A stretch of 45,898 nucleotides of DNA from Chthonomonadaceae bacterium (GTDB lineage Bacteria > Armatimonadota > Chthonomonadetes > Chthonomonadales > Chthonomonadaceae), in contig DASRGZ010000161.1 in the NCBI GenBank assembly GCA_035650735.1, positions 1 through 45,898 on the forward strand, read 5' to 3'. Below, one piece after another: positions 30,658 to 45,898 of the stretch. The translations under genes and the position numbers were made by a program. Every line of letters begins with the position of its first letter. Within the stretch, counting starts at the first letter, position 1. The notes beneath the pieces were generated by a model. It did no database searches. It was not told the origin of the DNA and saw only the letters and a list, made by a program, of their open reading frames with translations.

Positions 30658-30681
30658 CCTCACCTCCGGCTCCTCAGAAGC

Positions 30682-31003
30682 GGGCGAATGAATTCGCGGC
30701 AACAAAGGCACAAAGTCCCCTTGCGGGGACTAAACCCTCCCCTCTCCCGCGCTGCGGGAGAGGGGTTGGGGGTGAGGGCCACAACCATCTCAAGCTGGGT
30801 CACCCCCTCCCTCGTAGGGTCGCCAGGCGGAGGGCTGTGGCAAGGCGGAGGCAGGGGCCCTAACCCTGCCGACCCTGGCAGTCCATTGCAGGCCCGACCC
30901 TGGCAGTGGCGCGAACCGTTGAGCGCCGACCCTGGCAGTGGGGGACGGGGGGTTAGGTCAAACACGAAGGAGAGGGGAAAAAGGGGTGGGGGCTTCTCCC
31001 CTC
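30682..31003. repeat. Cluster of palindromic repeats between convergent genes: GCGAATGAATTCGC-type REP, family B hairpins and a nested insert (30820-30938)
   Basis: GGCGAATGAATTCGCGGCAAC...AGTCCCCTTGCGGGGACT; CCCCTCTCCCGCGCTGCGGGAGAGGGG; reverse complement of the 7943-8110 unit. Confidence 0.8.
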
Positions 31004-33391: not shown

Positions 33392-33461
33392 TTCGCCATT
33401 CCCGGCTTCAGTTCCTACGCGTGTCATCCCCGCTCAGGTTCCTTCTGTATTCGGTTGCGGC

Positions 33462-33873
33462 CCTCACCCCCTGTCCCCCCACTGCCAGGGTCAGGCCTAC
33501 AATGGACTGCCATGGTTGGGCCTACAATGGTTGGGCCCCTGCTCGGGTCGGCAAGGTGCTGCAAGGAACGGGCCTGCCATGGTTGGGCCCTCTGCCTTGC
33601 GAGGCCCTTGCCTCCGCCTAGCCACACCTGGCCACAGCCCTCCGCCTGGCGAGCCACGCTGCGGGAGAGGGGAGAGGGCTTCACTCTTAGGTTCGTCCGT
33701 TCTCCCTTATCTCCCCTCATCCCCGGCCCTTCTCCCTTGCAGGGAGAAGGGGGAACAAAAGCCGGGTCACCCCCTTCCCTTGTAGGGTCGCTAGGCGGAG
33801 GAACGAGCGTGCGCAGTTCCGACCCTAGCGGTGGGGGACGGGGGGTTAGGTCAAGAAGAACCGGGGGTGAGGG
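33462..33873. repeat. Family B hairpin cluster with nested inserts (33482-33652, 33788-33831)
   Basis: CCCTCACCCCCTGTCCCC[insert]CCACGCTGCGGGAGAGGGGAG; GGGTCACCCCCTTCCCTTGTAGGG[insert]TGGGGGACGGGGGGTTAGGTC, as at 7943 and 30798. Confidence 0.8.
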
Positions 33874-33907
33874 CCATATGAGAAAACGGAAGAACCATAC
33901 GGCGAGG

Positions 33908-37070: not shown

Positions 37071-38120
37071 ATGGAGAGCCAGCCCCCGTCCCTCCCATTA
37101 GACAAATTCCGACCGCGCCCGATGGTCAAGGTGCGCCAAACCGAGGTGCCGCGAGCGCGCTACCCGGCCATTGACGCCCATAATCACTTCATGGAAGGCA
37201 TGGACGTGGAGCAGACCGTAGCCATCATGGATGCCTGCAACGTGCGCGCTTATATAGACCTGTCCGGCTGGAATGGCGAGCGCCTGAAGCGGCGGCTGGA
37301 ACTGCTGAAAGGGCGTTACCCGGAGCGATTCGCCGTCTTCTACGTCCCGGATTTCAAGCGAATCAACGAGCCCGGCTTTGGCCAGATGGCGGCGCGAGAG
37401 CTGGAAGAGGCCGTGCGCAACGGCGTCCAGGGCTTGAAAATCTACAAAGAGTTGGGCCTTACTGTGCGCGATGCCGACGGGAAACTGGTTCACGTAGATG
37501 ATCCCCGCCTGGACTCGCTCTGGCAGGCGGCGGGCGAGTTGAACGTCCCTGTTATGATCCACGTCGCCGACCCCTGGGCCTTTTTCGCGCCGCTGGATGA
37601 GACCAACGAGCGCTACGTCGAGTTGATGCGCTATCCTGACTGGCATTTCTACGACAAAGACTATCCTCCGCTCCGGCAATTGCTGGAGGAGCGCGACCGG
37701 GTGGTCGAGAAACATCCGAATACGCGCTTTATCGGCGCGCACGTCGGCAGCGAGGCCGAAGACCTGGACAGGGCAGGCGAGGCGCTGGATCGCTATCCCA
37801 ATTACTATGTGGATTTTTCGGCGCGGATGGCCGAGATCGGGCGTCAGCCCCGCCGGGCCCGCGAGTTCTTCCTGCGCTACCAGGATCGCATTCTTTTCGG
37901 CACCGATGCGGGCGCCAGCGTCACCATGTACCGCACTTACTTCCGCTTTCTGGAGACCGACGACGAGTATTTCGAGTACTATAACTACCCGGTGAACGGG
38001 CTGTGGCATGTCTCCGGGCTCTACCTGCCGGACGAGGTACTCTGGAAAATCTATGTTGCCAACCCGGCCAGGGTCCTCCCGGGCCTGGATGTGCCGGATT
38101 CCCCTGCGGCCTGCGGATAA
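37071..38120 (+). CDS. Amidohydrolase family 2 protein
   Basis: IDAHNH, GLKIYKELGL, PVMIHVADP, FIGAHVG, DRILFGTD. Confidence 0.92.
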   Translation: MESQPPSLPLDKFRPRPMVKVRQTEVPRARYPAIDAHNHFMEGMDVEQTVAIMDACNVRAYIDLSGWNGERLKRRLELLKGRYPERFAVFYVPDFKRINEPGFGQMAARELEEAVRNGVQGLKIYKELGLTVRDADGKLVHVDDPRLDSLWQAAGELNVPVMIHVADPWAFFAPLDETNERYVELMRYPDWHFYDKDYPPLRQLLEERDRVVEKHPNTRFIGAHVGSEAEDLDRAGEALDRYPNYYVDFSARMAEIGRQPRRAREFFLRYQDRILFGTDAGASVTMYRTYFRFLETDDEYFEYYNYPVNGLWHVSGLYLPDEVLWKIYVANPARVLPGLDVPDSPAACG

Positions 38121-38213
38121 GCAGGCAATCCAGATGAAGCGCCTTTTCCGGTAGGCAGGCTTGCGAGAAAGCAACAGTGCCCTACGGGGAGAGGCTTTAA
38201 GGAGAGCAAAATT

Positions 38214-39014
38214 ATGAAATGGGTTTTGAACACCTACCAGACGGCTCAGGACTGGCCCCTGGAACATATCATCGAGATCTGCCAGGCGACGGGCTACGAG
38301 GGCATCGAGTTTCTACAGGACTTTAATCAGGCGCACGCTCTGGAGGCCAACGCTTCCGATGAATTGGTGCAGTTCGTCAAGGGAAAGATGCAGGACGCCG
38401 GGCTGATCATCGGCTCGCTCACAAGCTGCTGTAACTTCCACTCTCCGGAGGAGGCTGAGCGTCGGCGCAATATCGCCCAGGTTAAGCGCGTGATTGATCA
38501 GGCAGAGATGATAGGCTCTGACCATGTGCGCGTGCTGGGAGATCGCGTGCCCGACGACGAGCCGGGCAAGGAGATGGTTCTGACCAACGTGGCTGCCGCT
38601 TTGCAGGAGCTAGGGGATTATGCGCGGCCCAAAGGGATCACCGTCTCCATCGAGGCGCACGGCAGCTTCACCGACCCGGACTATGTGACGCGCGTGGTGA
38701 AAGAGGCCAATCGCCCCAACGTCGGCATCGTGTTTAACTCGCAGTGGCGGGTGGGCGCGGAGAAGGGCTGGAGCCTGCCGCCCAACGCGCCCTCCATCGC
38801 GCCCCTTTATGATATGATCGCGCCCTACATCACCTCCGTTCACACCCACCAGATGGAGCGCCCGGAGGTCTGGCCCTACTATCAGGAGTTTTTCCGCCGA
38901 CTCACCCAGGATGGCTACAAGGGCTACGTGTCCAATGAATGCGCCTATACCGGCCCCGACCCGGAGACGGTTCTGCGCCTGTATACGGCTCTCTTCCGAG
39001 CCTTCACCAGTTAG
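38214..39014 (+). CDS. Sugar phosphate isomerase/epimerase (xylose isomerase-like TIM barrel)
   Basis: GYEGIEF, HVRVLG, SIEAHG, SVHTH, GYKGYVSNE; ATG after AAGGAG. Confidence 0.88.
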   Translation: MKWVLNTYQTAQDWPLEHIIEICQATGYEGIEFLQDFNQAHALEANASDELVQFVKGKMQDAGLIIGSLTSCCNFHSPEEAERRRNIAQVKRVIDQAEMIGSDHVRVLGDRVPDDEPGKEMVLTNVAAALQELGDYARPKGITVSIEAHGSFTDPDYVTRVVKEANRPNVGIVFNSQWRVGAEKGWSLPPNAPSIAPLYDMIAPYITSVHTHQMERPEVWPYYQEFFRRLTQDGYKGYVSNECAYTGPDPETVLRLYTALFRAFTS

Positions 39015-39280
39015 GCGGCTTACCCGGCAAGGTCATTAGCCCCAAAAAGAGAACGCAAGGACCTTGTGCCCACATCCGTTAAGGAGGATATGCGCATCTG
39101 GAGGTAGTATATCCGAATGGCATTGCGCTTGCGTTTTTTACTGTAAAATAGATAGCTCATGGGACGGGCTGCTCTCGCTTTGGCACGCGGCATGCCTTGA
39201 CCCAAGATAGGCATTTCTAGATGTTCCGCCCAAGACGGCCTGGCATCGCATTCGTTCTGCACGGAGATAGAAGAGTTAAG

Positions 39281-42200
39281 ATGGATGTACGGTGCAGCAT
39301 TGATCTGCTGGGCAGGCTCCAGGTCAGGCAGGGCGGGCGGATTATCAATCGTTTCCGTACCTACAAGACCGGCGTTCTGCTGGCCTATCTCGCCTTTTAC
39401 CCGCAGCGCCCCCATCCCCGCGAGGAAGTGATCGAGATGCTCTGGCCGGAGTGCGAGCCGGCCCTGGGCCGCAACAGCCTCAGCCAGTCCCTCTCTTCGC
39501 TGCGCCACCAGCTAGAGCCGCCGGGCGTGCCCGCAGGCGCCGTGCTGCTTGCCGACCGGGCCACGATACGGCTCAATCCCGAGGCGATTTGTACCGATGT
39601 GGCCGAGTTTGAGGCCAGCTTGAAGGCCGTGGCCCGGGCCGAGGAGCAGAAAAAGGCCACGCTTCCCTTCCTGGTCGAGGCCGTGGAGCGCTACCACGGC
39701 GAACTCGCCCCCGGCTATTACGAGGACTGGATCCTGCGCGAGCGGGAGCGGCTGGCTGAAGCCTATCTGCGCACGCTCGACCGCTTGATCGCGCAATTAG
39801 AGCAAGCCGGGGAGCTGGAGCGCGCCCTGGATTATGCCCACCGCGCCGTCAAGGCCGACCCGATCCGCGAGGAATCCCATGCCGACCTGATCCGCCTATA
39901 TGCGGCGGCGGGGCAGCCCGCCGCCGCGCTGCGGCAATACCAGGAGCTCAAGCGGACCCTGGAAAAGGAGCTTGGCATCTCGCCCGACCCGGCTCTGCAC
40001 GCCTTCGTCCAGAAGCTGACGCTCGCCCCCCGCGCCCCCGCGCCCAAAGCCGCCGCGCCTGCGCCCCCTGCCCCCTCCGCGCTGCCGACCGGCACGGTGA
40101 CATTTCTGCTGTTGGAGGTGGAGGACGGCGCGGCAGAGAGCCAACTCCAGGATCGAGTTCGCCGGCATGGCGGACGGGAAGTGAAGGTGGCCGGCGGCGT
40201 GCGGGTCGTCGCCTTCGGGCGGGCCAGCGATGCGCTGGCGTGTGCGGTGGCGGCGCAGCAGGCTGGCACGGAGGTATCGCCGGGACGCATGGCCATCCAC
40301 ACGGGCGAGGTGCGGGAGGCGCCCAAAGCCGGGGCTGAGTTTGCCAATCCCGTTCTGGACCATGCCCTGCGCCTGCTGCCGGCGGCCCATCCGGGCCAGA
40401 TCCTCTGCTCCGAGGGAACGGCGGTGCTGCTGCGGCGCGACCTGGCCCCCAACCTCAAGCTGACGGACCTGGGCCTCTACCGCCTGCGCGGCGCCGACGG
40501 CGTGGAGCGCCTGTTTGAAGTGGACTATCCCGGACGGACGCCCGCCGCCTTCCCGCCGCCCAACGCCGAGCCGGGCCACGCCGGCAACCTACCGCTCCAT
40601 CTCACCCGTTTCTTTGGCCGTGAGCGAGAGATGGCCCAATTGCAGGCGCTGCTCGAGCCCGCCTGCGCGGCAGGAGAGGACGGCGAGCTGATACTTTCCA
40701 CGCGCCCGCGCCTGATCACCCTGACCGGCCCCGGCGGCACCGGCAAGACGCGATTGTCCTCCGAGGTAGGACGGCGGATGCTGGAGCCGTTCCGGGGCGC
40801 CGTCTGGCTGGTGCCCCTGGCCGATCTCTCCGAGGCACGCCGGATCCCCAAGGCGATCCTGGACGCGCTGCATCTGCCCTGTTCGCCGCACAGCGAGCCG
40901 CTGCAACAGGTCATTGCGGCCCTCTCCCGGCAGCCGACCCTGCTGATCCTCGATAACTTTGAGCAGTTACTGGGCCATGACAACCCCAACGCCAAAGAGA
41001 GCGTTCAGATCGTGCGGACGCTGCTGGCGCACGTCCCGGCGCTGACCTGCCTGGTGACGTCGCGCCAACTGCTGGGAGTGGTCGGGGAACTGGAGGTGCC
41101 GCTGGCGCCACTGCCGACGCCCGCCGGGCCGGATACCCCGGAGCAGCTAACCCTCTTTGAAAGCGTCCGCCTGTTCGTGGATCGGGCGCAGACGGTGCGC
41201 CCGGACTTCCAGGTGACGGGCCGGAATGCCCCGGCGGTCGCCGCTCTGTGTCAGAAACTGGAAGGCATTCCGCTGGCCCTGGAACTGGCAGCGGCGCGCT
41301 GTCAGGTGCTAACGCCCGCCCAGATCCTGACGCGCCTGGCTCATCGGCTCGACTTTCTCGTCAGCCGCCAGCCCGACCGAGACGCCCGGCATCAGACGCT
41401 GCGCGCGGCCATTGACTGGAGCTACTGCCTTCTGCCGGAGCCGCTGCAGCGCTTCTTCGCGCAGCTGTCGGCCTTTCGGGGCGGCTGGACGCTGGAGGCG
41501 GCGGAGACTATCTGCGCGGAGCCGCTCGCGATAGACTTCCTGGCGCAGTTGCGCGAGTGCTCGCTGGTGACGGCGCGGGAAGGCGGCGATGATCCCCTGG
41601 AGATGCGCTTCCAACTGCTGGAGACGCTGCGGGAGTATGCTGAGGAGAAGCTGACGCCGGAGGAGAAGGCCCAGATCCGGCAGCGGCACGCGGATTTCTT
41701 CCTGGCGCTGGCGGAAGAGGCGGACAAAGGGCTGGCAGGCCCACAGCAGCGGGAGTATCTGGCGCGATTGGACGCCGACCACGAGAACCTGCGCGCGGCC
41801 TTCGCCTGGCTTGTGGAAACCGGTCAGGCGGAGAGGGCTCTGCGGCTGGGAGGCGCGCTGGGCACGTTCTGGGGCATTCGCGGCCATGTGAGCGAGGGGC
41901 GCGAGCGTCTGGAAAGCGCGCTGGGGCTGGCCGGCGCGGAACGGACAGCGGCGCGCGCCCGTGTCGGCGATCTGGCAGGCACGATGGCGCTCAATCAGGG
42001 CGACTACGCCGCCGCCCGCGCCCTCTATGCGCAGAGCCTGGCCCTCTATCGGGAGATGGGCAACAAGCAGGGTGTTGCCGACCTGCTGCGCAGCCTGGGC
42101 ACGCTCGCCTACGAGCAGGGCGACTACGCGCAGGCGCGTACTCTGTCCGAGGAGAGCCTGGCACTCTACCGGGAAATGGGCAATGTGCGCAGCATCGCCA

Positions 42201-42967
42201 TCGCGCTCAAAGACCTGGGCAACGCCCTCAGCGAGCAGGGGGACTATGCCGCCGCCCACCCGCTCTATGAGGAGAGCCTGGCGCTGTTTCGGAGCCTGGG
42301 ACACCGAACCGGCATCGCCACCGCGCTCATCAGCTACGGCAGTTCGCTGCAGGAGCAGGGCGACCCTGCGCGGGCGCGTGCGCTCTGCGAGGAGAGCCTG
42401 GCGATCTTCCGGGAACTGGGGAACAAGGGCGGCATCGCCTTCGCTCTGCTCACGCTGGGCAACGCGCTCTGCGCGCAGGGCGATTACGCGGCGGCACAGA
42501 CCTTCTGCCTGGAGAGCCTGGCGATCTATCAGGAGATGGGCGATAAGGACGGCGTTGCGGACGCGCTCTATGGCCTGGGCAAAGTCGCCTGCGGCCAGCA
42601 CGATCTGGATCGGGCCCGCACCTGTTACGAGCAGAGCCTGGCGATCTTCGGGGAGCTGGGCGGCAAATTGCCGATCAGCCGGGGATTGGAGTCGCTGGCC
42701 GGCCTGGCGCGGGCGCAGGGGCAGGCCGAGCGTGCGGCGCAGCTTTCGGCGGCGGCGGATCGCCTCCGGGAAGCCATCCGAATTGGCCGTTCCGCTCCTG
42801 ATCGCACCGCCGATGAGCAGGACATAGACGTTCTTCGCGGCGCGCTTGGGGAAGAGGTGTTTGCGGTGGTCATGGCCGAAGGGCGCGCCGTCACGCTGGA
42901 GCAGGCCGTCGCCTATGCGCTCGATCCGGCAATCCGTCCGCCCGGAGAGCGCAGCGCCGCGCTTTAA
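39281..42967 (+). CDS. AfsR/SARP-family regulator: winged helix + BTAD + degenerate class III cyclase + STAND ATPase + TPR
   Basis: LLAYLA..HPREEVIEMLWP (wHTH); DPIREESH..LIRLY (BTAD); LPTGTVTFL, RMAIHTGE, GQILCS (cyclase-like); Walker A GPGGTGKT, Walker B LILDNFE, GIPLALELAA; six 40-aa QGDY-type TPRs. Start set at ATG 39281. Confidence 0.92.
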   Translation: MDVRCSIDLLGRLQVRQGGRIINRFRTYKTGVLLAYLAFYPQRPHPREEVIEMLWPECEPALGRNSLSQSLSSLRHQLEPPGVPAGAVLLADRATIRLNPEAICTDVAEFEASLKAVARAEEQKKATLPFLVEAVERYHGELAPGYYEDWILRERERLAEAYLRTLDRLIAQLEQAGELERALDYAHRAVKADPIREESHADLIRLYAAAGQPAAALRQYQELKRTLEKELGISPDPALHAFVQKLTLAPRAPAPKAAAPAPPAPSALPTGTVTFLLLEVEDGAAESQLQDRVRRHGGREVKVAGGVRVVAFGRASDALACAVAAQQAGTEVSPGRMAIHTGEVREAPKAGAEFANPVLDHALRLLPAAHPGQILCSEGTAVLLRRDLAPNLKLTDLGLYRLRGADGVERLFEVDYPGRTPAAFPPPNAEPGHAGNLPLHLTRFFGREREMAQLQALLEPACAAGEDGELILSTRPRLITLTGPGGTGKTRLSSEVGRRMLEPFRGAVWLVPLADLSEARRIPKAILDALHLPCSPHSEPLQQVIAALSRQPTLLILDNFEQLLGHDNPNAKESVQIVRTLLAHVPALTCLVTSRQLLGVVGELEVPLAPLPTPAGPDTPEQLTLFESVRLFVDRAQTVRPDFQVTGRNAPAVAALCQKLEGIPLALELAAARCQVLTPAQILTRLAHRLDFLVSRQPDRDARHQTLRAAIDWSYCLLPEPLQRFFAQLSAFRGGWTLEAAETICAEPLAIDFLAQLRECSLVTAREGGDDPLEMRFQLLETLREYAEEKLTPEEKAQIRQRHADFFLALAEEADKGLAGPQQREYLARLDADHENLRAAFAWLVETGQAERALRLGGALGTFWGIRGHVSEGRERLESALGLAGAERTAARARVGDLAGTMALNQGDYAAARALYAQSLALYREMGNKQGVADLLRSLGTLAYEQGDYAQARTLSEESLALYREMGNVRSIAIALKDLGNALSEQGDYAAAHPLYEESLALFRSLGHRTGIATALISYGSSLQEQGDPARARALCEESLAIFRELGNKGGIAFALLTLGNALCAQGDYAAAQTFCLESLAIYQEMGDKDGVADALYGLGKVACGQHDLDRARTCYEQSLAIFGELGGKLPISRGLESLAGLARAQGQAERAAQLSAAADRLREAIRIGRSAPDRTADEQDIDVLRGALGEEVFAVVMAEGRAVTLEQAVAYALDPAIRPPGERSAAL

Positions 42968-42988
42968 GAGTGTGTACGCTAACGTTTG

Positions 42989-43179
42989 GCCGCCCACCCC
43001 TAAAGGGATGGGCGGCAGACGGCAAGCCCGCTCAAGCGGGCTACGAGAGGTTAGTTACCCTTGAAGGAAGTCCTCCAGCGGGGCGCTTGGATGCCTTTGT
43101 CCTTCATAGAAACCGATCCACCCGGCTCAGCCCCGTTCACGGGGCTTGCCGCCCACAGCCCGGTCCTTTAGGGCCGGGC
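42989..43179. repeat. REPIN-like four-hairpin element (family C)
   Basis: GCCGCCCACCCCTAAAGGGATGGGCGGC, GGCAAGCCCGCTCAAGCGGGCT ... AGCCCCGTTCACGGGGCTTGCC, GCCCGGTCCTTTAGGGCCGGGC arranged as an inverted pair. Confidence 0.7.
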
Positions 43180-43187
43180 ACAGCTTT

Positions 43188-43227
43188 AACAAGCCTCCCC
43201 GCAAGAGAGGGAGGCTTGTTGTTTTTT
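43188..43227 (+). terminator. Intrinsic terminator after the SARP-STAND gene
   Basis: AACAAGCCTCCC...GGGAGGCTTGTT followed by GTTTTTT. Confidence 0.75.
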
Positions 43228-43273
43228 CTCCCTGACAAACAAAATTTCTGAAAAAGATTTGGCCTCCCAATCC

Positions 43274-43307
43274 TTGTCAGAGTTCTGTCAGGGTCGCCGG
43301 ATAGAAT
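43274..43307 (+). promoter_or_regulatory. Winged-helix (SARP/PhoB-type) activator box plus -10 element of the S8 gene
   Basis: TTGTCAG-AGTT-CTGTCAG (11-bp period, 43274-43291), 10-bp gap, TAGAAT (43302-43307). Confidence 0.65.
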
Positions 43308-43379
43308 GAAGCGTCAATCGGGCGGCGCACTCCAAATTTAGCCGACGCCCCGGAAAAGTTTCGCAGGGAGGACATTCCA

Positions 43380-45200
43380 ATGCACACTTCTTTTTCATCC
43401 TTAATTGGGAACAGCTTCAAGATCAGTTTTACTTCTCATCTCGGCCTGGCCGCTTCTCTGGCGCTGTGCGGCCTGGGCGCCTTCGCAGCCCCCGCGCAAG
43501 CCGACGCGCTTGCGGCCAAGAGCGATCTCTTCTTGACCAAAGTCGCCGCGCGGCCCGCCTCCACTACCGCCTCCGTAATCGCGCGACTGGACGGCGCGCT
43601 CACCCCGGAGCGAGAGCGGCAGCTTCAGGCGCTCCAGGCCCAGATCCACCGGCGCCTGCCCCTCATCCACTCTATCGCCGTGCGCGTGCCGGTGAATAAC
43701 CTCAATAAGCTGGCGGCTCTGCCGTTTGTCAAGCACTTGTCTGCCGATGTGGCCGTCAAGAAGAACGACGAGTTCACCGTAGAAGCCAGCGGCGCCGATG
43801 TCGCCTTCCAGCAGTATAGCCTGACGGGCAAGGGCGTGACGGTGGCGGTGGTGGATAGCGGAGTGCGCCCCAGCCAGGATCTCGGCGATACCGAGACAGG
43901 CGGCACGCGCCTGGTGGGCGGCGTGAGCTTTGTCGGCGGATCGGGTGCCACCGATCAGTGCGGGCACGGTACGCATGTCGCGGGCATTATCGCCGGCAAC
44001 GGCGCCGCCTCCACCGGCAGCCAGTACTTCCGCACCTTCTACGGCATCGCCCGCAAGGCCAACCTGGTCAGCGTTCGGGTGCTGGACGGCACCGGGAAGA
44101 GCGATGTCAGCACGGTCATCGCCGGCATTCAGTGGGTGGTGGATAACAAGGCCACGTATAACATCCGGGTACTCAACCTGTCGCTGGGCCATCCCGTGGG
44201 CGAGAGCTATACCACCGACCCGCTCTGCCAGGCCGTGGAGAGCGCCTGGAAGGCCGGCATCGTCGTCGTCTGCGCCGCCGGCAACAACGGGCGCGTGCAG
44301 GATACCCAGGACTCCTCCCTGGATAACGAGGGCTACGGCACCAACTGGGGCTCCATTCAGTCGCCGGGCAACGACCCCTATGTGATCACCGTCGGGGCCA
44401 CGAAGTCGATAGATGGGACTCGCGCTAATGACACCATCGCTACCTATTCCAGCCGGGGGCCTAGCCGCCTGGACTTCATTCTCAAACCCGACATCGTCGC
44501 GCCCGGCAACCATGTGATCTCGCTGGACGCCAACAACAGCTACCTGGACAACGCCAACGGCGATACCAACCAGATCCCCTGGAACTACTATAGCACTCGT
44601 GCCGCTTCCGGCAACTCGGCCAAGTACTTCCGGCTTTCGGGCACCTCGATGGCGGCCCCGGTGGTGGCAGGCGCGGCGGCCCTGCTGCTGGAGAAAGACC
44701 CGACGCTCACGCCCGACACCATCAAGGCCCGCCTGATGATCTCGGCGGATAAGTGGGCTTATCCCGGCGGCGACGGCGATGTCCTGACCTTCGGCGCGGG
44801 CTACCTTAACATTCCCGCCGCCCTCAACAGCACGGTGACGGCGACCCAATCGGCGATGAGCCCGCCTCTGGCGCGCGACGATCAGGGCAACGTCTGGATC
44901 AATCTGAACAACGCCATCTGGGGAACCAGAGCCATCTGGGGCACCGGCGTCGCCAACCTGAACGCCATCTGGGGCACCAATGCGATCTGGGGAACGAACG
45001 CTATCTGGGGCGTCCGCGCCATCTGGGGAACCAGCGTCTGGGCTAACAACGCCATCTGGGGCACCAACGCCATCTGGGGTACCAACGCCATTTGGGGGAC
45101 GAACGCGATATGGGGTACCAGCGTGTGGACGGATAACGCCATCTGGGGCACCAACGCCAGCGCGGTAGACCTATCCGCTATCGCCATCAACGGAGAATAG
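43380..45200 (+). CDS. Secreted S8 serine peptidase (AprX-like) with C-terminal AIWG repeats
   Basis: Signal peptide ending AQA; propeptide; triad VVDSG, GHGTHVAG, SGTSMAAP; AAGN; RBS GGGAGG. Confidence 0.93.
   Translation: MHTSFSSLIGNSFKISFTSHLGLAASLALCGLGAFAAPAQADALAAKSDLFLTKVAARPASTTASVIARLDGALTPERERQLQALQAQIHRRLPLIHSIAVRVPVNNLNKLAALPFVKHLSADVAVKKNDEFTVEASGADVAFQQYSLTGKGVTVAVVDSGVRPSQDLGDTETGGTRLVGGVSFVGGSGATDQCGHGTHVAGIIAGNGAASTGSQYFRTFYGIARKANLVSVRVLDGTGKSDVSTVIAGIQWVVDNKATYNIRVLNLSLGHPVGESYTTDPLCQAVESAWKAGIVVVCAAGNNGRVQDTQDSSLDNEGYGTNWGSIQSPGNDPYVITVGATKSIDGTRANDTIATYSSRGPSRLDFILKPDIVAPGNHVISLDANNSYLDNANGDTNQIPWNYYSTRAASGNSAKYFRLSGTSMAAPVVAGAAALLLEKDPTLTPDTIKARLMISADKWAYPGGDGDVLTFGAGYLNIPAALNSTVTATQSAMSPPLARDDQGNVWINLNNAIWGTRAIWGTGVANLNAIWGTNAIWGTNAIWGVRAIWGTSVWANNAIWGTNAIWGTNAIWGTNAIWGTSVWTDNAIWGTNASAVDLSAIAINGE
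44910..45152 (+). repeat. Coding tandem repeat: 11 copies of AIWG (mostly NAIWGT)
   Basis: 18-bp period with varied synonymous codons, interrupted by 5-residue spacers (e.g. SVWAN, SVWTD). Confidence 0.95.
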
Positions 45201-45331
45201 TGAAGACTAGACGGAGTACCCATTAGATGAACCAGCTAGCTTCCTTATCGGCGCCTTTATCTTCTCTCGGAACCGGTCTCCTGCCAGGGCAGAACATCGC
45301 CCTGGTATTCTTCTGGAAGAAAGGAATGCCT

Positions 45332-45586
45332 ATGCCTGTTCTCCTCTGTGAGGTCATCGGTTGTGGACGACCTGCCGCCTATGTTCGCGTGGCAGCAGGA
45401 AGCGGCCACATGGAGGATTATCTCTGCGCGAGATGTTATCGGGAGCTACAGGCCCGGTTTCCGGATAGGATAGGCTTCTATGCGCCTCTGACGGATGCAG
45501 CCGCCGGGCCGCTACCGGACGAGGCAAAGCCGGCGCCGGAGGAAACACAGGATAGAGAAGCCCCTTCTGAGGAAGCCGAGCAGTAA
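45332..45586 (+). CDS. Small Cys4 (putative zinc-binding) hypothetical protein
   Basis: 84 aa; CEVIGC...LCARC plus acidic tail; RBS GAAAGGA. Confidence 0.6.
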   Translation: MPVLLCEVIGCGRPAAYVRVAAGSGHMEDYLCARCYRELQARFPDRIGFYAPLTDAAAGPLPDEAKPAPEETQDREAPSEEAEQ

Positions 45587-45731
45587 CGCTACCGTTTGTT
45601 CCTCCTCTTCCAACGCCAGAAACGCCTCCTGTTGACCAGCAGGAGGCGTTTTGCTTGCGAATATCGGGCGATGGGTCCGGTGCGACAGCACTTCATTATT
45701 CCCCTCCCGCGGCACCAGGAGAGGGAAAAGA

Positions 45732-45898
45732 CCTCACCCCCAACTCCTCTCCTTCAGAAGGAGAGGGGAGCAGCCTTACTCCCAGGTTCTTCGGTTCTGC
45801 CTTCTCTCCCCTCCTCCCCGGCCCTTCTCCCTGCAAGGCAGAAGGGAGAGCAGAAGCCGGATCATCCGCTTCCCCCTCTCCCGCAGCGTGGGAGAGGG
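45732..45898. repeat. Family B hairpin cluster (uninserted; runs off window)
   Basis: CCTCACCCCCAACTCCTCTCCTTCAGAAGGAGAGGGG; CCCCTCTCCCGCAGCGTGGGAGAGG. Confidence 0.7.

Follow-up and report, generated by a model that had tools for sequence, protein, structure and literature searches.

The DNA analysed here (the window: 45,898 nucleotides (nt), contig C161 of a 6.5-Mb genome of a Chthonomonadaceae bacterium, G000, 63% GC) was found to contain a large regulator gene of the SARP family followed by a gene for an S8 subtilase with a tryptophan-repeat tail, with a putative operator of two 11-bp direct repeats between them. With moderate confidence, the arrangement is read as an AfsR-like regulatory cassette which captured one member of a protease family linked to cyclic di-GMP (c-di-GMP), the protease being switched on through the SARP box. 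The unit is predicted to work like AfsR-afsS without its regulator being an AfsR orthologue, and it is not a conserved closed loop. All the parts listed in the original prediction, made from the sequence alone (regulator, terminator, TGTCAG repeats, S8 protease with 11 AIWG units and a small four-cysteine (Cys4) gene), were found to be present; its list held neither the degenerate cyclase-like domain of the regulator nor a dispersed repeat of ~195 bp.

The protease promoter was found to contain TGTCAG at 43275 and 43286, the second copy ending 10 nt before the hexamer TAGAAT (43302-43307). With TAGAAT taken as the -10 element, the 11-bp units fall at -40 to -19, which is where the available text of PMC10936776 places the afs box, on which two AfsR SARP domains are bound side by side. 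As expected of the target promoter of a large SARP, the 11-bp direct repeats cover the -35 region, a position that depends on the putative -10 element. The TGTCAG pair is unique in the genome; the bare match is nevertheless at chance level because pairs of the form TGTCA-Nk-TGTCA occur about twice per spacing genome-wide. Some 6-nt repeat at the geometry of the box was found in 10 of 5390 genes, a count equal to that at periods 9 and 10. The significance of the box rests on comparative tests.

In these tests, 20 SARP loci formed the discovery set and 44 fetched loci the held-out set (37 with a SARP N-terminus, 35 scorable). The discovery loci were found to contain window-like boxes just downstream of, divergent from, or before the SARP gene. 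With a first matrix, built from eight discovery boxes, 18 of the 35 held-out loci had a box exceeding the 99th percentile of the background; at a score of 15 this matrix recovered 14 of the 35, where shuffles gave 0.05 and altered geometries 2-4, and it matched none of 134 S8 upstream regions. To take hand selection of the first-matrix boxes out of the test, it was rerun blind to sequence, requiring a -10 hexamer and an 11-bp repeat with 7 or more of the 11 positions identical. In this form 19 of the 35 held-out SARP loci were positive, against 48 of 1163 background genes, and altered periods of 10 and 12 gave 2 and 1, respectively. With a matrix made from the sequence-blind boxes alone, the window was found to score 25.6, a value reached by 0 of 800 background regions. 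In a genome-wide search the window box ranked first of 13 matches. The box lies 50-153 nt past the SARP stop in seven held-out loci and ~110 nt past it in the window when the inserted repeat is subtracted. The exact TGTCA pattern was found upstream of none of the 134 homologous proteases, and the matrix gave one marginal match on 142 family proteases.

The recognition helix of these regulators was found to vary with the bases of the box. At base 7, G was in the majority in 13 of the 17 loci with Ser at residue 68 and in none of the 7 with Arg (Fisher p 0.001); one Asn-68 locus was left uncounted. His at residue 65 was accompanied by G at base 5 in 6/6 loci; where residue 65 is Asn, 5/7 loci had C at this base in half or more of their half-sites, and only 2 had it in every one. 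The N65/S68 pair of the window regulator fits the C5/G7 of the window box.

Several points weigh against this reading of the box. The eight boxes of the first matrix were chosen partly for their likeness to that of the window; the background maximum under the second matrix (25.3) is near the window score; the sequence-blind test leaves the 6-nt gap between box and -10 element unfixed, gaps of 4-8 giving 14-18 of the 35; and about half of the held-out SARP loci (17/35) contained no box. The kin counted in the helix table are not independent, and AfsR itself breaks the Ser/Arg rule, with R87 and a G at -34. Taken with these, the afs-box geometry, the family boxes and the helix fit uphold, as a prediction from sequence, the earlier proposal that the regulator activates the protease gene via the repeat. 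The 11-bp repeat is very probably the operator of the window SARP and the protease its target, and activation of the protease gene by the regulator through this box is considered probable.

Near-identical boxes before and behind the SARP gene were seen at other loci (L209, L298, L299, L301, L313 and L331), which suggests that these SARP genes control their own expression or were inserted into a duplicated promoter; for the window regulator no box of its own was found. High-scoring SARP-type boxes also occur away from SARP genes in the window genome (C219:9523, C192:9846, C70:727 and C210:46355), the first of them preceding a protein with a signal-peptide-like start. A second SARP paralogue of this genome (C166 near 20458, minus strand) has a downstream box of its own with a score of 10.8 and a different core.

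The regulator was found to contain a weak N-terminal match to Trans_reg_C (PF00486; E 0.004, below the cut-off) followed by BTAD (PF03704) at amino acids (aa) 105-245, above the cut-off, and an AAA/NACHT/NB-ARC region with Walker A at aa 483 and Walker B at aa 554, followed by six TPR_12 stretches. The N-terminus matches EmbR and AfsR, and the degenerate cyclase-like domain between BTAD and STAND matches LipJ (1ybt, E 1.6e-5). The protein thus shows the features of a large SARP, namely an OmpR-type winged helix-turn-helix (wHTH) with BTAD and a NOD/STAND region with Walker A/B, then TPRs. Against the AfsR equivalog NF053617 it scored 95.3 bits, below the cut-off of 1430, and is not assigned as an AfsR orthologue. 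Relatives were found in 52 of the 68 genomes of the class, with as many as 35 matches per genome, and the window genome holds five SARP-BTAD genes. It was also seen to carry STAND-TPR paralogues on ~25 contigs, many of them beginning at the cyclase-like domain without a SARP head.

In the protease, D159, H196, N302 and S423 were found to be invariant in 118 homologues, giving the Asp-His-Ser triad and the oxyanion Asn of the S8 family (PF00082). A likely signal peptide, with a hydrophobic stretch and A-Q-A, was judged by eye and hydropathy, and the structure search with the full model covered residues 64-537. The nearest named relatives belong to Chthonomonadales and other Armatimonadota; the family is present in 56 of the 301 genomes of the phylum and in 29 of the 68 of the class. 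Rfam c-di-GMP-I or c-di-GMP-I-GGC aptamers (RF01051 / RF03167) were found in 25 of 39 protease loci, and a derived riboswitch profile matched 60 of 134 protease upstream regions; in a more distant metagenome set the riboswitch was rare (1/74). Five of the eight riboswitch matches in the window genome precede three of the four protease paralogues, and neither aptamer was found upstream of the window protease. The sister protein (SH-aLRT 96 in a quick tree built from 104 cores) carries the riboswitch, from which we infer a loss in the window copy. Local capture by the SARP cassette likely replaced the c-di-GMP riboswitch control that is common in the family.

The riboswitches before the paralogues were seen in tandem (c-di-GMP-I-GGC; L025 957-1291 and 3184-3272, L026 5138-5441), and two of the paralogues themselves stand in tandem on contig C82. 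Three c-di-GMP-I-like matches of the same genome precede genes for proteins other than proteases (C62:315, C191:31665 and 35020).

The tail of the window protease was found to contain exactly 11 AIWG units, encoded by 9 distinct 18-mers. Across the 55 pairs of units, 111 synonymous and 28 non-synonymous codon differences were counted, and the tail peptide is therefore taken to be kept by selection and not to be a fresh stutter. In 216 tails the Trp-to-Trp spacings cluster at 5, 6, 11, 12, 17 and 18, units without Trp hold the register of 5-6 residues, and both ends are conserved, 194 of the 216 ending in G[ED]. The tail is nearly confined to subtilases (61 of 67 long matches; 55 of 57 short matches are S8 ends), and no stand-alone gene for a tail peptide was found among the 57 short matches or the 143 new representatives checked. 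Each protein carries its own homogenised motif, and motifs switch between near-identical cores. In one clade (L068, L070, L072, L075 and L076) Ser replaces most of the Trp, giving KALSG/KAISG-type units, probably by one event; this clade keeps the riboswitch and has no MASE9 neighbour.

The partner found beside the tailed proteases is a different sensor from the one first proposed. MASE9-like proteins, mostly of the HD-GYP-GAF-GGDEF type, were found in 59 of 123 protease loci (20 of these were seeds; 39/103 without them) and in 42 of the 74 held-out loci that have a tail, many of them there as stand-alone domains; PF20972 passes the cut-off in five protease-neighbour proteins. The window genome contains one MASE9-like HD-GYP-GAF-GGDEF protein, on contig C152, which has no PF20972 match at E 1e-4 and matches the derived MASE9-like profile at E 5e-92. 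Given the protease core, the partial correlation of tail and MASE9 was 0.37 in Armatimonadota pairs (n=41) and 0.17 in the held-out set (n=38, 48/2000 permutations), in permutation tests that ignore kinship. The tail motifs thus co-vary modestly, at the level of sequence, with the MASE9-like sensor. The earlier expectations that sensor or regulator genes would be enriched beside tailed S8 genes and that the repeat would co-vary with the sensor accordingly hold in part: the recurrent neighbour found is the MASE9-like sensor and not a SARP regulator, and in the held-out set the tail follows its own core as well as it follows MASE9 (0.21 vs 0.17). In the available part of the MASE9-defining paper (bioRxiv 10.1101/2021.11.05.467447) the domain is suggested to bind a ligand within the membrane and no ligand is named; the words 'protease' and 'peptidase' do not occur in its main text. 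The idea of the tail as a signal survives with a changed receptor, and a tail acting as ligand of the MASE9-like sensor is put forward tentatively, at somewhat under even chances. Beside the held-out core correlation, three points tell against it: in another run the correlation was 0.21 for MASE9, with 0.14 for the sensor output domain used as a control, the C152 sensor is unlinked to any of the five proteases of its genome, and neither a separator nor a cleavage motif occurs between the tail units.

A structural tail that stays on the enzyme, as a beta-solenoid, a self-assembly tag or a surface-anchoring tag, is held to be just as plausible as the ligand. The clustered spacings, the kept register, the conserved ends and the abutting of units with no separator suit a solenoid, the Ser-for-Trp clade and the near-constant attachment to subtilases agree with it, and among the look-alikes of the tail are a cluster of hexapeptide-repeat proteins, 16% of them with PF00132, and a hexapeptide protein of phage-like type. 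Left-handed beta-helices follow the hexapeptide pattern [LIV]-x-x-x-[STAV]-x and have a triangular fold. Compared with PF00132, the period of 6 and the aliphatic position of the tail fit, the fifth position is N or R, and the models are of low confidence. Against a structural role, AlphaFold2 gave no confident tail fold (predicted local distance difference test, pLDDT, mostly <50 in the full protein; predicted template modelling score, pTM, 0.27 for the tail alone), no PDB sequence, NCBIfam or Pfam family matched the tail, Arg is the commonest residue (26%) at the position buried in the left-handed helix pattern, and the motifs change between near-identical cores. With a structural tail the MASE9 linkage would reflect co-regulation or the sensing of another protease product, and the operator would be unaffected. 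A pairing of regulator and tail through amyloid motifs was discarded, as the regulator contains no tail-like repeat (seven scattered Trp). In the Chloroflexota loci L014, L016 and L017, subtilases with tails of 18-24 Trp in other motifs were seen with a large TPR protein nearby, and the sensor partner may be a different one there.

That the box is read in trans, by the SARP paralogue on contig C52 or by an OmpR/PhoB-type protein with the adjacent SARP as a bystander, is considered unlikely. The geometry of the box also matches the E. coli pho box, and among the four SARP paralogues of the genome three have R68 and the C52 protein has A65/S68, which makes it a possible reader and counts against the adjacent regulator. 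The region upstream of pstS in the same genome (C202:260-330), however, contains CTTAAT-type repeats with an 11-bp period and no TGTCA. This run is the probable pho box of the lineage, and a pho-box reading of the window box was rejected on this ground. The position of the box behind the SARP stop, shared with the seven held-out loci, and its first rank in the genome also argue for the adjacent SARP.

The pairing of regulator and protease is almost certainly local and not conserved. Flanks were fetched for most protease matches, giving 123 loci with 142 protease open reading frames (ORFs), of which 114 had at least 4 kb upstream. No HTH-BTAD match was found near any of the 142 proteases; the loci contained one STAND-TPR gene, 5.3 kb off behind an efflux operon, and two TPR-only sensors, and genome G294 has another two SARP genes, at distances of 8.4 and 12.6 kb from a protease. 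No SARP or STAND match was found in 76 metagenome protease loci, and no S8 gene in the 64 SARP loci of the discovery and held-out sets (20 + 44), many of them short from contig ends. A scan of 19 box-facing ORFs gave Kelch, beta-lactamase, cupin, H-NOX, redoxin, propeller-like and unnamed proteins; judged by eye, about half of them begin with a stretch like a signal peptide. In the closest full-length relatives for which a box was scored, the genes faced code for a Kelch protein and a member of the beta-lactamase family. By sequence comparison the regulator acts like a portable cassette whose targets change, and a conserved module of regulator and protease found no support.

The proposal that tail peptides are released, imported and bound by the regulator TPRs in an RRNPP-like positive feedback is held to be very improbable. 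It draws on the regulator-to-protease link, which is likely real, on a tail that is multi-copy and homogenised within each protein, and on a TPR array that resembles the LGN/Pins TPR proteins, which bind peptides. Against it, a TPR regulator linked to a peptide-precursor gene, a feature of RRNPP systems, was found in none of the three sets (0/142, 0/76 and 0/64), the box-facing targets are unrelated proteins, and the regulator, in which no membrane segment was found, would need the peptide to be imported. Sensing of tail peptides by the TPRs thus found no support, and in all likelihood the tail is not their ligand. Least credible of all is a box that is chance sequence between unrelated neighbours, for which the genome-wide counts of TGTCA pairs (at chance level at every spacing) and of 6-nt repeats speak, since the window box exceeds all background regions under the family matrix in two independent trainings and fits the helix residues of the regulator.

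In the mechanism proposed for the captured cassette, by analogy with AfsR, a cytoplasmic cue would release the NOD/TPR inhibition of the regulator, and two SARP domains would then bind next to each other on the box, over the -35 region, and recruit RNA polymerase. The terminator would keep the protease off until activation, and the exported protease would carry the Trp-hexapeptide tail, which, intact or clipped, may act as a repeated ligand for the C152 MASE9-like HD-GYP-GAF-GGDEF sensor and not for the TPRs. A wider relay is doubtful: the STAND sensor would fire the riboswitch-free protease, the tail or its clipped peptides would serve as MASE9 ligand in the same and neighbouring cells, and the resulting change in c-di-GMP would drive the three riboswitch-controlled paralogues with matching tails. 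If true, it would be an undescribed peptide system of cell-to-cell signalling, with a readable helix-to-base code by which hundreds of orphan SARP-STAND sensors could be given targets. For the AfsR-like STAND sensors of Armatimonadota, a large family as yet unstudied, the window offers a compact unit of regulator, operator and target and a tentative rule tying helix residues to box bases; it suggests that SARP cassettes gain new secreted targets, here apparently replacing a riboswitch, and it provides a candidate source of ligand for MASE9.

Features of the regulator-protease region in the window (positions count from the first letter of the window)
Feature	Position	Strand
Large SARP regulator, wHTH-BTAD / degenerate cyclase-like / STAND ATPase / TPR array, 1228 aa	39281..42967	+
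Region of the recognition helix, aa 60-77; in relatives N65 and S68 co-vary with bases 5 and 7 of the box	39458..39511	+
Degenerate class III nucleotide-cyclase-like domain, ~aa 264-425	40070..40555	+
STAND domain, Walker A (aa 483-490) to Walker B (aa 554-561)	40727..40963	+
Dispersed hairpin-ended repeat element, likely later insertion, outside the module	~42985..43180	.
Intrinsic-terminator-like hairpin, 12-bp stem and T run, between regulator and protease transcription	43188..43229	+
Predicted SARP box, two direct repeats of 11 bp with TGTCAG as core, ~-40 to -19 like the afs box	43274..43295	+
-10-like hexamer TAGAAT; inferred transcription start ~43314	43302..43307	+
Ribosome-binding site GGAGGA	43367..43372	+
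S8 subtilase, AprX-labelled family, 606 aa: likely signal peptide aa 1-41, propeptide, triad D159/H196/S423	43380..45200	+
Trp-hexapeptide tail, 11 [NR]AIWG[TV] units and two SVW units	44910..45152	+
Conserved C-terminal cap DLSxxAIxGE	45168..45197	+
84-aa four-cysteine (Cys4) ORF, most likely start 45332	45332..45586	+

The terminator hairpin is visible in the sequence and in the RNA fold, and was not among the results of a consensus terminator scan. Between it and the regulator stop lies the dispersed repeat, with 90 BLAST matches in the genome and ends that we take to resemble IS200/IS605 or REP-type hairpins; it stretches the distance from regulator stop to box from ~110 to 306 nt. A Rfam search of 38000-45898 gave nothing at the gathering score, and a known RNA in the hairpin region was rejected, the region being the dispersed repeat. 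The Cys4 gene was dropped as a part of the module; its small family occurs in 10 of the 68 genomes and at none of the S8 loci found in relatives. A further dispersed family, of intergenic pyrimidine/purine-rich repeats, was seen at 45700-45898, 33400-33900 and 30660-31000.

No publication on the tail, on the linkage of tail and MASE9 or on these SARP boxes was found in a search whose coverage excluded most subscription papers and supplements. In RRNPP signalling (PlcR/PapR, Rap/Phr) a TPR regulator adjoins an exported product, as is the case in the window, which differs in the absence of a small pro-peptide gene and of conserved linkage and in having STAND and SARP domains instead of HTH-TPR. 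The window protease resembles Tk-SP of Thermococcus kodakarensis (PDB 3AFG, 9UES) in its propeptide and catalytic domain (E 2e-42; Z 45.3, root-mean-square deviation 2.1 A over 387 residues) with an intact triad, and unlike Tk-SP and the AprX-labelled S8 subtilases it carries the C-terminal Trp-hexapeptide tail and a conserved cap. A MASE9-HD-GYP-GAF-GGDEF architecture is common to the neighbours of the protease family, the C152 protein and the available part of the MASE9 paper (bioRxiv 10.1101/2021.11.05.467447). The closest likeness of the regulator is to AfsR of Streptomyces coelicolor (PDB 8K60, 8JKE, 8HVR; PMC10936776, available text), with which it shares the SARP-NOD-TPR layout (E 1e-16; SARP part E 4e-8), and the box, like the afs box of afsS, contains two 11-bp repeats at -40 to -19 with TCAG at -37 to -34 in both upstream repeats. 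Unlike AfsR, the window regulator has the extra degenerate cyclase-like domain and the base-reading residues Q69 and S73 in place of T88 and R92; its target is a likely secreted protease, and its family is expanded with locus-specific boxes.

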